From Actinomycetospora straminea (lineage in GTDB: Bacteria > Actinomycetota > Actinomycetes > Mycobacteriales > Pseudonocardiaceae): a DNA stretch of 24,000 nt. Below, piece by piece: positions 5,380-16,383 of this stretch. Location of the stretch: positions 24,301 through 48,300 of the forward strand of contig NZ_JAQZAN010000026.1 in assembly GCF_028737255.1 (NCBI RefSeq), read 5' to 3'. The notes beneath the pieces were generated by a model. It was given only the letters and a program-made list of their open reading frames with translations. It was not told where the DNA came from and ran no database searches. Every line of letters begins with the position of its first letter. The first letter of the stretch is position 1. The position numbers and the translations under genes are program-made.

Positions 5380-6098
5380 TCCCCGGAGGATGCCCCTGCC
5401 CCGGCACCCGCCGCCGCGTGGGGGTCGCTGACGCCCTCGCGGGCCGCCCGGGCCTCGGCACGGCGCGCGCCCGCGACACCGAAGTGGTCACCGCCCTTGC
5501 GGCGCGCGTCGTCGGTGCCCCAGGAGCGCTTGCGGTCCACCGGGACCATCCGCGGGATGTGCTTGCGGCAGTGGATGTAGGCCTCCTCGACGGTGACCTC
5601 GACCCACACGTCCGCCTTCCGGCCCGGCACCGACTCCTCGGGCAGGTCGGGGTGCGCGCTGCGCAGGAGCACGTCGTCGACGAGGCGCGCCGAGCCGTTG
5701 ACGTGCAGCCCGATGAGCTCGTCGGTGAAGTCGACCATGAGCAACCCCACGTGCGGGTTCTCGGTGATGTTGCCCAGGCTCGCCATGACGCCGTTGCCGC
5801 GGTACTCCGGCCAGGCCAGGTGCCGGTCGTCGAGCACCCGCAGGAACCCGGGCGGTCCCGCGCGCAGCGTGGAGTCGCACTCGCCGTGCGCGTCCGACGT
5901 CGCCACGAACGCCATCGACATGCGCGCCACGAACTCCTGCATGGCCGGGACGAGCCGGTCGCACATCTGGTCGGCGTGGAACCGCTCGGCGCGGTCCGAC
6001 GTGCCGAGCGCGTCCTGCAGGACGTGCTCACCGGCGGAGCCCGGGCGCTCGGGGTGGGGGTCGGGCTGATCGGGCTGGGGGGTGACCCGGTCGCTCAT
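5376..6098 (-). CDS. Pyridoxamine 5'-phosphate oxidase-like FMN-binding split-barrel protein
   Basis: MAFVATSDAHGECDSTLRAGPPGFLRVLDDRHLAWPEYRGNGVMASLGNITENPHVGLLMVDF matches the PNPOx-related flavoprotein pattern. ATG at 6098 is preceded by GGAGAGG 6 nt upstream. The track start at 6188 adds a Pro/Arg-rich extension that I do not trust. Confidence 0.75.
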   Translation of the reverse strand: MSDRVTPQPDQPDPHPERPGSAGEHVLQDALGTSDRAERFHADQMCDRLVPAMQEFVARMSMAFVATSDAHGECDSTLRAGPPGFLRVLDDRHLAWPEYRGNGVMASLGNITENPHVGLLMVDFTDELIGLHVNGSARLVDDVLLRSAHPDLPEESVPGRKADVWVEVTVEEAYIHCRKHIPRMVPVDRKRSWGTDDARRKGGDHFGVAGARRAEARAAREGVSDPHAAAGAGAGASSGE

Positions 6099-6355: not shown

Positions 6356-6682
6356 TCGTGATCAGGCCGAGACCGGGGCGCGGTGGGACCGTGACCCTCG
6401 CTCACGGGCCTGAACAGGCGCGACGTGACGGGCACCGAGGGTCCCGTGACCGCTGCACCGGGTGACGGGGCCTTCCCCCGCCTCCTACCGTGGTGGGCGT
6501 CCGGAGACCCGTGGCAGCTGGCTCCGGACCCGCGCTCGTCCCGCCCGGGCCTGTCCGGCGGGCGCGGCCCCCGAATCCAGCGGTGACAGGCCGACAGCCG
6601 ACATCGGACTCCCCACCGGTGACGGCACCCGGCTCGCTCCCCCTCGCGCCGGGTCGCAGCGGCGGCGCGCCGGAGACCCCGC

Positions 6683-7399
6683 ATGTCCCGACACCGTGCG
6701 GCGCCCGCCCGAGCGGCGACGCCTCCCCCGACCGACCCCACGCTGCACGCGGCCGAGCCGCACCCGTCCGGGCCGCTCCCCCGCTCCGGGCGCCGGGCCG
6801 AGCCCCACCCGTCCGGGCCGCTCCCCCGCGCCCGGCGCCGGGCCGAGCCCCACCCCTCCGGGCCGCTCCCCCGCGCCCGGCGCCGGGGCCCCGACGAGCC
6901 CGACACCGCCGCGCTCGACCTCGCGGCCATCGCGCTCGCGGCCGCCGGCGCCCGTCAGGCCGGGCTGCCGGCCACCGGGACCTCGCCCGCCACTGGGGCG
7001 ACCGCCGTCCCGCGCACGACCGCCGACGACCCGGCGGGCCGCACCGCCGGCCCCGTCACGGGCGGCACGCCGCGTCCGGCGTACCCGGCCGCCGTCCCGA
7101 GCGCGCTCGCGCCCGTCACGCCGTCGCACCCGCTGCCCGCGGTGGCGCGCGACCCCGGTCGACGCACGGCCCTGCCGACCCGCACCGCCGGGGCCCTCGC
7201 CCTGGTCGGCGCGCTGGCGGGCGGCGGCGTCGCCGTGATCGGCGGGAGCGCCGTGCTCGCGGCCGACCCCACGCCGGCCTCGGTCGACCTCGCGCCCGAG
7301 GTGGCCAGCGCGGCCGCGAACGCCGCCGTGCCGGCCGACGAGCCCGCCGAGCCCGCCGAGCCGCCCGCCGACGCGGTCCTCGACCTCGGCGGCTACTGA
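6683..7399 (+). CDS. Hypothetical single-pass membrane protein with three tandem 15-aa repeats
   Basis: G/C third positions are near-saturated across the frame. ATG at 6683 has GGAGA 6 nt upstream. The N-terminus MSRHRAAP resembles many actinobacterial envelope proteins. The repeat unit is AEPHPSGPLPR(S/A)(G/R)RR x3. The TM segment is ALALVGALAGGGVAVIGGSAVLAA, and the acidic C-terminal tail ends ...DEPAEPAEPPADAVLDLGGY. A strong hairpin lies 9 nt after the stop. No known domain was recognised. Confidence 0.55.
   Translation: MSRHRAAPARAATPPPTDPTLHAAEPHPSGPLPRSGRRAEPHPSGPLPRARRRAEPHPSGPLPRARRRGPDEPDTAALDLAAIALAAAGARQAGLPATGTSPATGATAVPRTTADDPAGRTAGPVTGGTPRPAYPAAVPSALAPVTPSHPLPAVARDPGRRTALPTRTAGALALVGALAGGGVAVIGGSAVLAADPTPASVDLAPEVASAAANAAVPADEPAEPAEPPADAVLDLGGY
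6752..6886 (+). repeat. 45-bp tandem repeat x3 inside the 6683-7399 CDS
   Basis: Units lie at 6752-6796, 6797-6841 and 6842-6886. Unit 1 versus unit 2 has 3 mismatches, and unit 2 versus unit 3 has 1 synonymous mismatch. The units are in frame (15 codons each). Confidence 0.9.
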
Positions 7400-8099: not shown

Positions 8100-8732
8100 T
8101 CAGCGACGGGGACGTGACGCCCGGTACACGATCGCCGGCGGCAGGTTCCGCCACACCACCGGCGACGTCTCGACGTCCGCGAAGCAGTCGCCGAGCTCCT
8201 CGCGCAGCGCCCGTGCCGGGGCCGCCCACGCGGTGGCGCAGTACGCGAACTGCACGAACACCCCGTCGTCGGTCAGGGCGCGGGCGACGACGGGCAGCAG
8301 GGAGTCCTCCCGGCCCGGCCGCGTCGCCGACCACCCCAGGCCGCTGACCACGGCGTGCGCGCCCCGGATGTCCCGCAGCGCCAGGAGCGCGCCCAGCTCG
8401 GCGACGTCCGCGGGCACGACCTCGACGCCGCCGAAGCGCTCGGCGAGACGGTGCGCGAGCACCGGGTTGATCTCGACGGCGAGCTGGCGACCCCGCCCGG
8501 CGAGGCGCTGGGTGAGCAGGCCGGTGAACGCCCCGCTGCCGGCCCCGAGCTCGACGACCACCGGGTCGGCGGGCGCGGTGCGCAGCGCCGCGTCGGCCAT
8601 GCCGCGGGCGAGGGCGGTGCTGCTCGGCCACACCGACGCCGTCGCGACGGGGGCGCGGACGAACTGCGCGGCGAACACCGCGCGGTCGGCGAGCGACGCC
8701 TCGCGGGGCGCGGGGGTGTCCTCAGGCGACAT
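8100..8732 (-). CDS. Small class I SAM-dependent methyltransferase resembling phospholipid N-methyltransferases (COG3963-like)
   Basis: FAAQFVRAPVATASVWPSSTALARGMA followed by VVELGAGSGAFTGLL (SAM motif I) matches my memory of the N-terminal signature of the small phospholipid N-methyltransferase/rRNA-dimethylase-like family. ATG at 8732 lies 8 nt upstream of the preceding gene's stop, giving an 11-nt overlap. Confidence 0.7.
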   Translation of the reverse strand: MSPEDTPAPREASLADRAVFAAQFVRAPVATASVWPSSTALARGMADAALRTAPADPVVVELGAGSGAFTGLLTQRLAGRGRQLAVEINPVLAHRLAERFGGVEVVPADVAELGALLALRDIRGAHAVVSGLGWSATRPGREDSLLPVVARALTDDGVFVQFAYCATAWAAPARALREELGDCFADVETSPVVWRNLPPAIVYRASRPRR

Positions 8733-13852: not shown

Positions 13853-15505
13853 ATGTCGCTCATGCCCGACGCCGACGTCATCGTGGTGGGGGCGGGGCTC
13901 GCGGGCCTCGTCGCCACGGCCGAGCTCGCGGACGCGGGCCGGCGGGTGGTCCTGCTCGACCAGGAGCCCGAGGCCTCGCTCGGCGGGCAGGCGTGGTGGT
14001 CGTTCGGCGGGCTGTTCCTCGTCGACAGCCCCGAGCAGCGCCGCCTGCGCGTCCGCGACTCGTTCGACCTGGCCTGGTCCGACTGGACCTCCAGCGCCGG
14101 CTTCGACCGTCCCGACGAGGACCGCTGGGGCCGGGAGTGGGCCCGCGCCTACGTCGAGTGGGCCGCCGGTGAGAAGCGCGCCTGGCTGCACGCGATGGGC
14201 GTGCGCTTCTTCCCCGTCGTCGGCTGGGCGGAGCGCGGCGGGGCGTCGGCCACCGGGCACGGCAACTCCGTGCCCCGCTTCCACATCGTCTGGGGCACCG
14301 GCCCCGGCATCCTCGAGCCGTTCCTGCGTCGGGTCCACGCCGCGGTCGCCGACGGGCGCGTGACGATCCGCTGCCGCCACCGCGTCGATGCCCTCACGAG
14401 CTCCGGCGGCGCGATCACCGGCGTGTCCGGCGCCGTGCTGCAGCCCTCGGAGGTCGCGCGCGGCGAGTCCAGCTCGCGCACCGTCGTCGGCGACTTCGCG
14501 CTGAGCGCCGACGCCGTCGTCGTCACCTCGGGCGGCATCGGCGGCGACCACGACGCCGTGCGCGCCGCGTGGCCCGAGCGCCTCGGCCCGCCGCCGCAGC
14601 AGATGATCTCCGGGGTGCCCGCCCACGTCGACGGCCGCATGATCGGGATCAGCGAGGACGCCGGCGCGCGCGTCGTCAACCGCGACCGGATGTGGCACTA
14701 CACCGAGGGGATCGTCAACCACTCCCCGGTGTGGCCGCTGCACGGCATCCGCATCCTGCCCGGGCCGTCCTCGCTCTGGTTCGACGCGGAGGGCCACCGC
14801 CTGCCCGCGCCGCTGTGGCCCGGGTTCGACACGCTCGCCACCCTCGAGCACATCCGGCGCACGGGCCACGACCACACCTGGTTCGTGCTCACCCAGCGGA
14901 TCCTCGAGAAGGAGTTCGCGCTCTCGGGCTCCGAGCAGAACCCGGACTTCACCGGCCGGGACGTCCGGCTGACCCTGCAGCGCGTGCGACCCGGGCCCAC
15001 CGAACCGGTCGCGGCGTTCCAGCGCTCGGGCGAGGACTTCGTGCAGGCCGACGACCTCGGCACCCTGGTGGACCGGATGAACGCGCTGACCCCGACGCCG
15101 TTGCTGGACGGGGCCCGGATCGAGCGGGAGGTCCTCGCCCGCGACGCCGAGCTCGCCAACCCCTACGGCAAGGACGGCCAGCTCGCCGCGGTCCGCGGCG
15201 CCCGCGCCTACCTCGGCGACCGCCTCGTGCGCGTCGCCCCGCCCCACCGCATCCTCGACCCGGCGGCGGGGCCGCTGGTGGCGGTCAAGCTGCACATCCT
15301 GACGCGCAAGACGCTCGGCGGGCTCTGGACGGACCTCGACGGCCGGGTCCTCCGGGCCGACGGCACCCCACTGCCCGGCCTGTACGCGGCGGGCGAGGCC
15401 GCGGGCTTCGGCGGCGGCGGGGTGCACGGCTACCGCTCGCTGGAGGGCACGTTCCTCGGCGGCTGCCTGTTCTCGGGGCGGCAGGTGGGACGCGCCCTGG
15501 CGTGA
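13853..15505 (+). CDS. FAD-binding dehydrogenase (fumarate reductase/KsdD-like flavoprotein fold)
   Basis: The N-terminal dinucleotide fold is DVIVVGAGLAGLVATAELADAGRRVVLLDQE. The C-terminal FAD motif is GLYAAGEAAGFGGGGVHGYRSLEGTFLGGCLFSGR. The protein is 550 aa with uniformly high GC3. Confidence 0.8.
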   Translation: MSLMPDADVIVVGAGLAGLVATAELADAGRRVVLLDQEPEASLGGQAWWSFGGLFLVDSPEQRRLRVRDSFDLAWSDWTSSAGFDRPDEDRWGREWARAYVEWAAGEKRAWLHAMGVRFFPVVGWAERGGASATGHGNSVPRFHIVWGTGPGILEPFLRRVHAAVADGRVTIRCRHRVDALTSSGGAITGVSGAVLQPSEVARGESSSRTVVGDFALSADAVVVTSGGIGGDHDAVRAAWPERLGPPPQQMISGVPAHVDGRMIGISEDAGARVVNRDRMWHYTEGIVNHSPVWPLHGIRILPGPSSLWFDAEGHRLPAPLWPGFDTLATLEHIRRTGHDHTWFVLTQRILEKEFALSGSEQNPDFTGRDVRLTLQRVRPGPTEPVAAFQRSGEDFVQADDLGTLVDRMNALTPTPLLDGARIEREVLARDAELANPYGKDGQLAAVRGARAYLGDRLVRVAPPHRILDPAAGPLVAVKLHILTRKTLGGLWTDLDGRVLRADGTPLPGLYAAGEAAGFGGGGVHGYRSLEGTFLGGCLFSGRQVGRALA

Positions 15506-15509
15506 TCGC

Positions 15510-15797
15510 TCAGGCCGGCGCGCCCGACTCGGTGCCGATCCAGATGCGCACGATCGACCCGGTCGACACCGCCGTGCCGGGCTCGGGGTCCTGGCGGGCG
15601 ATGTGCGCACGCCCGGCCGCGGTGTGCCAGGCGTTCTCCGGAACGGCGAGCAGACCGGCGTCCAGGGCACGGTCGTGGGCCTCGGCGGCCGGGACGCCGA
15701 CCAGCTCGGGCACGCGCGCCGTGGTGCCGCTCTCCGCGGCCACGGGAGTGGCCGGGACGTCGTCGGGCACGGGGTCCTCCTCGGGAGTCGGTTCCAT
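15510..15797 (-). CDS. Small single-PASTA-domain protein without signal peptide or TM segment
   Basis: VPELVGVPAAEAHDRALDAGLL...IARQDPEPGTAVSTGSIVRIWIG fits the PASTA pattern (VPxLxG...A...L...GL...V..Q.P..G..v..Gs.V.l). The N-terminus is acidic (MEPTPEEDPVPDD) with no hydrophobic stretch. ATG at 15797 has GAGGGG 5 nt upstream and lies 9 nt after the whiB stop. GC3 is high. Confidence 0.65.
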   Translation of the reverse strand: MEPTPEEDPVPDDVPATPVAAESGTTARVPELVGVPAAEAHDRALDAGLLAVPENAWHTAAGRAHIARQDPEPGTAVSTGSIVRIWIGTESGAPA

Positions 15798-15806
15798 CGC
15801 CACCCC

Positions 15807-16130
15807 TCAGGCCGCGGGGGTGTCGCGGCCGGCGTGCTCGCGACGGGCGTCACGGCGACGGCGGGCGAGGAGCGTGCGGCGCTCGTCCTCGCTCTCCCCG
15901 CCCCACACGCCGTAGGGCTCCTCCACCGTCCGGGCCCACTCGCGGCAGGGCGCGAGGACCGGGCAGCCCGCGCAGATCTCCTTCGCGCGGGCGACCCGGC
16001 GTTGCCGCGAGGGGTCCCGCTCGCCCTCCGGGTGGAAGAACACCGCGAGATCCATGTCGCGACAGGCCGCGCGGCGCTGCCAGTCCCAGTGCTCCACGAT
16101 CGCGGCCGGTAGGCGCGACACGTCCGCCAC
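15807..16130 (-). CDS. whiB: WhiB-family (Wbl) Fe-S transcription factor, WhiB3/WhiD-like
   Basis: WDWQRRAACRDMDLAVFFHPEGERD...AKEICAGCPVLAPCREWA...EPYGVWGGESEDERR carries the four Cys residues (C-Xn-C-X2-C-X5-C) and the GVWGG turn. I prefer the GTG start at 16130, which has AGGAGG 8 nt upstream. The track start at 16139 overlaps that SD. Confidence 0.9.
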   Translation of the reverse strand: MADVSRLPAAIVEHWDWQRRAACRDMDLAVFFHPEGERDPSRQRRVARAKEICAGCPVLAPCREWARTVEEPYGVWGGESEDERRTLLARRRRDARREHAGRDTPAA

Positions 16131-16383
16131 GGCAACCACCTCCTACAGCTTGTCGTAGGGGGCGCATACCCCCGGGGGCGGTGTCACACCCGGACCGGCC
16201 GGAGATCGGCGGTGGCGGCATCCGCTGCGCCCGGGGTCCCCCTCGGCGCCGCGCCCACACCACCGTCGGCACCCGGTGCTGTGTCCACCGTCATCCGCGG
16301 AGGTGTGCCGCGATCCGCCACCGACCCGTCGACGGGCCGCGGGCGCGATCTCCGTCCCGCGGGCGATCAGCGCGGCCGCGGCG

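Follow-up and report, generated by a model that had tools for sequence, protein, structure and literature searches.

The Wbl proteins of the WhiB3/WhiD clade are small, carry a [4Fe-4S] cluster and bind to the principal sigma factor at its region 4. PASTA domains are typically found outside the cytoplasm, C-terminal to a membrane-anchored Ser/Thr kinase or to the transpeptidase of a PBP, which is where they usually occur but does not define the fold; to our knowledge, all of the PASTA domains that have been characterised are extracytoplasmic. Binding of muropeptides, lipid II or beta-lactams is regarded as one of their features. Both families meet in the whiB4-ponA2 region of mycobacteria, in which a Wbl gene adjoins the gene of a class A PBP that has one PASTA domain. 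In the review by Ogawara, the PASTA domains of Actinobacteria were treated solely within class A PBPs and kinases (PMC6273383).

Here, we analysed a stretch of 24,000 nucleotides from Actinomycetospora straminea (G000:C18:24301-48300; hereafter, the window), in which a Wbl gene is followed by a small gene that encodes a PASTA domain. The domain shares its fold and its HMM family (PF03793) with the PASTA domains of PknB, PrkC, StkP, PBP2x, PBP1 and PonA2. In contrast to those of the kinases and PBPs, however, it is a stand-alone single copy that lacks the usual context, with no kinase or transpeptidase part, no transmembrane helix and no signal peptide; it is presumably cytoplasmic and has a family-specific set of invariant residues (H43, D48, N57, H60, T61, R65 and W88). 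The Wbl protein shares the (S)RLP...WDWQ N-terminal motif, the FFHP motif, the four cysteines and the GVWGG turn with M. tuberculosis WhiB3 and Streptomyces WhiD, but it differs from them in its conserved C-terminal PAA and in the PASTA gene downstream. As in whiB4-ponA2, a Wbl gene is associated genomically with a PASTA-bearing protein; there, however, the genes are divergent and the PASTA domain sits at the C-terminal end of a PBP that is exported, whereas here the domain is free and its gene appears to belong to the same transcription unit. In the full-text literature that was searched, neither a Wbl-PASTA operon nor a PASTA protein that is cytoplasmic or stands alone was described; the author of the original prediction knew of no described example. 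The novelty would lie in a family of PASTA domains that have no export or membrane signal, are presumably cytoplasmic and include one clade that is fixed beside a Wbl paralogue. Since PASTA domains are regarded as extracytoplasmic wall sensors, a free and conserved family of them raises the question of an intracellular ligand.

Gene starts, spacer and upstream region of the pair

Both genes lie on the minus strand, with the Wbl gene upstream and the PASTA gene downstream (Table 1). The frame of the Wbl gene is open from 16139 and ends with the TGA at 15809-15807. In a MAFFT alignment of the 13 loci, the Wbl orthologues are preceded by a conserved AGGAGG that is followed after 8-10 nt by GTG-GCG/GCC-GAC (M-A-D-V-S-R-L-P), and because this sequence and the MADVSRLP start are conserved across the 13 loci, the start was assigned to the GTG at 16130, which gives a protein of 107 aa. 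The original prediction had placed the Wbl stop at 15807 and had ended its range at 16130, with which these coordinates agree, but its start of the PASTA gene was corrected. The PASTA frame is open from a GTG at 15803 (97 aa) or from an ATG at 15797 (95 aa), and it was the latter, 9 nt past the Wbl stop, that had been chosen. The orthologous starts, however, align to the GTG at 15770 of the window in all 12 of the 12 loci (M-P-D-D-V in the window; MSDD, MSED or MTD in the orthologues). A GGAGG at 15776-15780 lies 5 nt before this GTG, and in every one of the 13 loci a GGAGG is found 5-7 nt ahead of the conserved ATG or GTG. Based on the orthologue starts and on its own GGAGG, 86 aa is therefore the most likely length of the PASTA protein, and its database entry (P0001) has the same length.

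Table 1. Features of the Wbl-PASTA locus, in window coordinates
Feature	Coordinates	Strand	Basis
Conserved cassette upstream region, then leader	16131..16205	-	MAFFT alignment, 13 orthologous loci
-35-like GTGTGAC	16189-16183	-	13-locus conservation
Invariant GGGTA	within 16163-16173	-	13-locus conservation
Invariant inverted repeat CTACGAC-N4-6-GTAG	16143..16158	-	invariant in 13 loci
Wbl Shine-Dalgarno (SD) AGGAGG, abutted by the inverted repeat	16144-16139	-	
Wbl-alpha gene	15807..16130	-	Pfam Whib, conserved SD and MADVSRLP, 13-locus alignment
Intergenic spacer, 36 nt, PASTA SD GAGGAGG at 15782-15776	15771..15806	-	comparison of 13 loci
Clade-A small PASTA gene, most likely 86 aa, stop codon 15510-15512	15510..15770	-	Pfam, orthologue starts, GC3, dN/dS
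Acidic disordered N-terminal tail of PASTA protein	15717..15770	-	pLDDT, pI
PASTA domain (beta-alpha-beta-beta-beta-beta)	15534..15716	-	Pfam, AlphaFold2, Foldseek, 86-sequence alignment

From the Wbl stop to the PASTA start there are 36 nt in the window and about 25-64 nt in the orthologues, and a consensus scan found no terminator-like site between the two genes. Because both genes are preceded by SDs of their own, 25-64 nt separate them and a terminator-like site is lacking, the two genes look like closely spaced cistrons of one operon that are initiated independently, and the translational coupling that had been proposed for them was not upheld. In the window (15804-15809) and at L012 and L015, the two ORFs share a frame and have one TGA between them, while L011 has two. 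Read-through of the TGA could in principle recode such an arrangement into a Wbl-PASTA fusion. At nine of the 13 orthologous loci, however, the frames differ, and because of these nine loci we regard the shared frame as probably a coincidence; moreover, the PASTA SD and start codon are conserved at every locus and no fusion protein is on record, and recoding appears to us highly improbable. On the other side of the PASTA gene, a convergent gene for an FAD-binding dehydrogenase (NF009472, 957 bits) ends 4 nt from the PASTA stop (window 15503-15512), a distance that leaves no space for a terminator, and the downstream neighbours of the cassette differ in other species.

Upstream of the Wbl gene, the conservation extends over only about 75 nt, and the sequence farther out is not conserved between the genomic contexts of the 13 loci. 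A consensus sigma-70 promoter scan of the region upstream of Wbl gave no match, and the spacing of about 14 nt between GTGTGAC and GGGTA is atypical for sigma-70; the region is a candidate promoter that was recognised only by its conservation. The inverted repeat may form a 5'-terminal hairpin or serve as an operator. The folding energy of the leader hairpin was not better than that of shuffles (z = -0.25), and the stem is without covariation because it never varies. A similar GTACGAC-N-GTAGGAGG precedes the sister Wbl gene on contig C44. Rfam returned nothing relevant for the window region or for three clade-B loci.

The PASTA protein and its family

The single PASTA domain that had been proposed from the sequence was confirmed by the profile and by the model. 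PF03793 matches residues 30-90 of the 97-aa frame with 32.8 bits (gathering cut-off 23.2; E 7e-8) and over positions 2-63 of the profile (62 of 64), and no other domain was found in the 86-aa protein. The AlphaFold2 model, which was based on an 86-sequence alignment, has a core pLDDT of about 90 at residues 30-50 and 70-90 and the secondary structure E-H-E-E-E-E of the small alpha/beta PASTA fold. The top 30 matches of the model in a Foldseek search of the PDB were all PASTA domains (PBP1, PknB, PonA2, StkP and PBP2x), the best of them being that of S. aureus PBP1 (7o4c; rmsd 1.6 A over 67 columns). A sequence search of the solved structures with the family profile gave no match, and PHROGs and PADLOC returned merely generic WhiB or kinase-PASTA similarity. 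The tail that precedes the domain is disordered (pLDDT 52-65) and, as had been stated earlier, acidic, with a pI of 4.05 and no K or R in residues 1-29 of the 97-aa frame. The tails of the orthologues are rich in Thr and Asp, e.g., MSDDTTTMTTTTD or MTDTTTD; their sequence varies but this character is kept.

The original prediction had also considered that the ORF might be unconserved, as the relic of a gene for a kinase or PBP, and its weak NCBIfam similarity, which is to the PknB PASTA repeats, could be taken as a trace of such an origin. This is contradicted by a median dN/dS of 0.17 (maximum 0.38) and the absence of indels in the 59-codon core of the 13 orthologues, which come from 13 species, by the 87 database members, nearly all of which are short, and by an identity of merely 29-35% to the PASTA domains of the genome's own kinases and PBPs in full-length domain alignments. 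We consider a decaying remnant to be refuted by this conservation, its probability being close to nil. The strong coding bias that had been noted for the ORF is reflected in a GC3 of 0.93, and taken together the values point to a real, conserved gene under purifying selection.

With regard to its location, the description of the protein as signal-less and TM-less held throughout the family. None of the 86 family members reaches a Kyte-Doolittle value of 1.6 in any 19-residue window; the maximum is 1.39 and sits within the PASTA core or just ahead of it. Likewise, no Sec, Tat, lipoprotein, sortase or hydrophobic signal was found in these 86 members. In the window and at L012 and L015, a hidden upstream signal peptide is not possible because the Wbl stop closes the frame, and at L011 it is the second TGA, located 6 nt farther downstream, that closes the PASTA frame. 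Because a signal peptide and a membrane segment are both lacking, the PASTA protein is probably cytoplasmic. The alternative, export by a non-classical route and action on the wall in the manner of the canonical PASTA domains, would bring the protein into line with the extracytoplasmic location of all characterised PASTA domains (PMC6273383), but it would have to proceed without any of the above signals and from an acidic N-terminus that has no basic n-region, and we find it very unlikely.

The 86-sequence alignment revealed 12 family-invariant residues (H43, A46, L47, D48, A49, A53, V54, N57, G64, Q71, G76 and W88 in the numbering of the 97-aa frame) and a further four that are near-invariant (D44, H60, T61 and R65). 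The conserved polar residues (H43, D44, D48, N57, H60, T61, R65 and Q71) map to the helix and to the beta2-beta3 loop, which suggests a specific binding surface.

A word-indexed search found 87 relatives of the PASTA protein, nearly all of which are 62-170 aa long and 85 of which have a precomputed PF03793 match; the relatives that carry a name belong to Actinomycetospora or Pseudonocardia. Genome scans placed the family in all six of the other Actinomycetospora genomes and in four of 194 other Pseudonocardiaceae genomes. A profile search of 1.84 billion representatives was dominated by multi-PASTA repeat proteins, with nine short proteins (71-142 aa) among the 150 best matches, three of which were already members of the family. 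When 70 genomes of the class were scanned with the Pfam PASTA profile, the matches listed were mostly kinases.

Four clades of small PASTA proteins are present, all of them in this genome. Clade A (about 80 aa; here on C18) is always found behind a Wbl gene, while clade B (78 aa; C8) has its own conserved leader of about 150 nt and no Wbl gene within 4 kb. The proteins of clade C (C31) have a Gly-rich C-terminal tail and are encoded between an Nramp/Mn-catalase pair and a cytoplasmic hydrolase of the beta-lactamase family, and the divergent clade D (C52) has an RsbW-like ORF upstream in this genome. The clade-B leader (L002 3186-3340, G000:C8; L016-L023) contains GGGCCCGG...CCGGGTCCC, and hairpin-like GACCGG-N4-CCGGTC repeats lie directly before AGGAGGAG. 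In the clade-C cluster (L027 291-5558, L033 and G000:C31 around 6483-6875), the genes are arranged in the order divergent BTAD/SARP-type regulator, Mn catalase, Nramp transporter, 77-aa ORF, PASTA-C, 80-aa ORF and PF00144 hydrolase, the last of which belongs to the beta-lactamase family and has no signal peptide. The clade-D gene starts inside the stop of the RsbW-like HATPase_c_2 ORF (ATGA overlap; L001 3330-4144, G000:C52:10329-11143), and PASTA-D occurs without this ORF in three other Actinomycetospora genomes. A general pairing of TM-less PASTA paralogues with sigma-related regulators was considered and rejected, as the RsbW-like ORF accompanies clade D only in this genome.

The Wbl paralogue and the linkage of the two genes

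The Wbl assignment of the original prediction was supported by a score of 82.4 bits against Pfam Whib (PF02467; E 3e-23). The best solved relative of the protein is M. tuberculosis WhiB3 (8cyf, E 3e-26), ahead of WhiB1, WhiB, WhiB4 and WhiB7. Its four cysteines are spaced C-X29-C-X2-C-X5-C and occur together with the GVWGG turn and a basic C-terminal tail; a 67-sequence alignment shows no variation at C26, C56, C59, C65, W79 and G80 or in the GVWGG turn, and the aromatic residues W18, W20, F34 and F35 are conserved in the alignment to WhiB3. With the HMM match, the four cysteines for a predicted [4Fe-4S] cluster, the turn and the basic tail, the protein has, as far as its sequence can tell, the features that define the Wbl family.

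The genome carries 17 Wbl genes, four of which belong to the WhiB3 clade. In a comparison with the WhiB3 fragment, the window Wbl scored 91.5 bits and the C11 copy 137 bits, and this top-scoring C11 gene adjoins groEL/groES, which is the arrangement of whiB3 in M. tuberculosis. Because the C11 copy has both the best score and this neighbourhood, the window Wbl is a lineage-specific paralogue of the WhiB3/WhiD clade and not the WhiB3/WhiD orthologue; its earlier description as WhiB3/WhiD-like is accurate at the level of the clade only. Its nearest relative is Wbl-beta on C44 (G000:C44:151516-151809; 69% identity), and neither a PASTA gene nor a remnant of one was found downstream of this sister gene on C44 or in the clade-B species. 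The nearest relatives outside the genus have 58-61% identity and belong to genomes in which a small PASTA protein was not detected.

A Wbl orthologue lies directly upstream of the PASTA gene at all 13 clade-A loci, and in the six other Actinomycetospora genomes sampled, a set that overlaps with the 13 loci, the Wbl and PASTA genes are adjacent by coordinates in every case. The genes that flank the pair form at least five different arrangements. Because these flanks vary and the upstream conservation reaches no farther than about 75 nt from the Wbl start, the comparison of the loci shows the pair to behave as a self-contained cassette that is mobile between genomic contexts. In a maximum-likelihood tree, all PASTA genes that are linked to a Wbl gene group into a single clade, which is explained by one change (support 87/89) and is sister to clade B; this fits a single recruitment event followed by retention. 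Synteny of the pair, which the original prediction had proposed to look for across Actinobacteria, was found within Actinomycetospora, to which the pair is restricted in the genomes searched.

In four species and in this genome, the PASTA gene of clade B and the Wbl-beta gene are not linked. The four clade-B species, which have no clade A, contain only a beta-type Wbl that lies far from their PASTA-B gene, the distance being about 580 kb in one complete genome, and one clade-A species has only an alpha-type Wbl. Because the beta/B arrangement is unlinked, adjacency of the two genes is not obligatory. This genome holds both sets, namely the linked Wbl-alpha and PASTA-A and the unlinked Wbl-beta (C44) and PASTA-B (G000:C8:2949-3185), whereas each of five other genomes examined has one set or the other; this difference suggests a duplication or a horizontal acquisition of one set in this genome. 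The alpha/A and beta/B sets look like the same two genes in a linked and an unlinked arrangement, and this pattern tracks the relationships of the species and is not independent evidence for an interaction.

The linkage as such may be incidental, i.e., an ancestor of some members of the genus may have acquired a PASTA gene behind its Wbl gene, and the two may have been co-transcribed and inherited since then with no shared function. A linkage that is limited to one genus and one clade is phylogenetically shallow and could persist by inertia, the other clades (B, C and D) have their function in different contexts, and the clade-B species carry the sister Wbl with no PASTA gene or remnant behind it, all of which would fit such an origin. 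It accords less well with an arrangement that is kept while the neighbours change in at least five contexts, with a spacer that retains a strong SD and never acquires a promoter-sized gap, or with the similar purifying selection on the two genes, the dN/dS of the Wbl core being 0.20 in the orthologue set. We therefore regard incidental co-transcription as rather unlikely.

The original prediction had suggested that the PASTA protein could be a partner or an anti-factor of the Wbl protein. In such a case, it would bind the Wbl protein itself and modulate the binding of the latter to sigma-A or its contact with DNA; for instance, the acidic tail could bind to the basic C-terminal tail of the Wbl protein, or a face of the PASTA domain could bind near the cluster. 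Such a partnership would be consistent with the operon linkage kept at 13 of 13 loci by a pair that moves as a unit, with the complementary charge of the PASTA tail (pI 4.05) and the Wbl tail (ARRRRDARRE) and with the family-specific conserved polar surface residues. However, none of the 123 homologues of the 210-aa translation obtained by reading through the TGA carries both PF02467 and PF03793, and the closest PASTA clade and the closest Wbl, B and beta, are encoded far apart. In an AlphaFold2 model of the fused chain (TGA read as W; alignment of four fused rows and 63 Wbl homologues), pLDDT was about 90-98 in the Wbl half and about 80-89 in the PASTA half, and the 40-residue connector and tail did not become ordered (pLDDT 56-68, compared with 52-65 alone; pTM 0.53); with no PAE and only four aligned sequences in the PASTA half, this last point weighs little. 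Direct support for a physical partnership was not obtained, and we judge it to be a rather unlikely explanation of the linkage.

A proposed role in the Wbl response

We propose instead that the pair is a self-contained two-gene operon, restricted to Actinomycetospora in the genomes searched, which arose when a clade-A gene was placed once behind a Wbl gene and which has since been kept under purifying selection. The first gene encodes a WhiB3/WhiD-clade Wbl paralogue that is expected, by homology, to contain a [4Fe-4S] cluster and to bind sigma region 4. The product of the second, presumably an 86-aa cytoplasmic protein, consists of one PASTA domain behind a tail that is disordered, acidic and rich in Thr. 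Both genes would be transcribed from the conserved promoter and leader and translated from separate ribosome-binding sites. From the gene order, we infer that they may be co-expressed because the PASTA protein works in a Wbl-controlled pathway, where it could be a small cytoplasmic binding module either for a precursor that bears a stem peptide, with UDP-MurNAc-pentapeptide or inner-leaflet lipid II as the candidate ligands, or for a protein. The PASTA protein would then be an accessory or an effector of the Wbl response and not an obligate Wbl subunit; the unlinked clade B and Wbl-beta and the lack of a fusion protein argue against an obligate complex. We are confident of the genetic and structural description of the pair, whereas the role proposed for the PASTA protein in the Wbl response is tentative and less likely than not; as a compromise between the two, we regard the explanation as a whole as about as likely as not.

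PASTA domains can bind lipid II, as was found for PknB (PMC6428115), and they can serve as protein-interaction modules, as is reported for PBP2B-DivIB (PMC7654742). In M. tuberculosis PknB, the residues reported to contact the ligand belong to the PASTA3-4 linker (PMC6428115), and because this linker is located between domains they cannot be mapped onto a single PASTA domain; that they have no counterpart in the single-PASTA protein is a counterpoint to the proposed role. Because the invariant polar residues H43, D48, N57, H60, T61 and R65 are not those of the canonical PASTA domains, the ligand could be quite different from theirs. A version in which a free cytoplasmic PASTA sensor reads the pool of peptidoglycan precursors and signals by binding the sigma-A-bound Wbl directly seems quite unlikely to us; if true, precursor sensing and Wbl binding by the PASTA protein would link the supply of the wall with transcription initiation in one step, with no need for a membrane kinase.

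The operon with the Wbl gene provides a simple genetic handle, consisting of two small genes and one predicted promoter, and the pair could help to probe the connection between Wbl-dependent transcription and the status of the peptidoglycan precursors. The system is a narrow one, found mostly in one non-model genus, and its value lies in generating hypotheses and in being a clean case of a domain that would have changed its compartment.

Two further observations concern the Wbl genes. On C5 of this genome, a Wbl gene (5879-6067) and a PASTA domain within an 827-aa frame (8477-8653) lie on opposite strands about 2.4 kb apart, which looks like a neighbourhood of the whiB4-ponA2 type. Additionally, all 13 of the Wbl-alpha orthologues end in Ala-Ala (window 15807-15818; L003-L015) behind tails that are variable, 12 of them in Pro-Ala-Ala (TPAA, HPAA, RPAA or VPAA) and one in TSAA, and the Wbl-beta proteins end instead in RSA, RTA or RAS. 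A C-terminal AA resembles the degrons of Clp proteases that have been described for Streptomyces ClgR/PopR.
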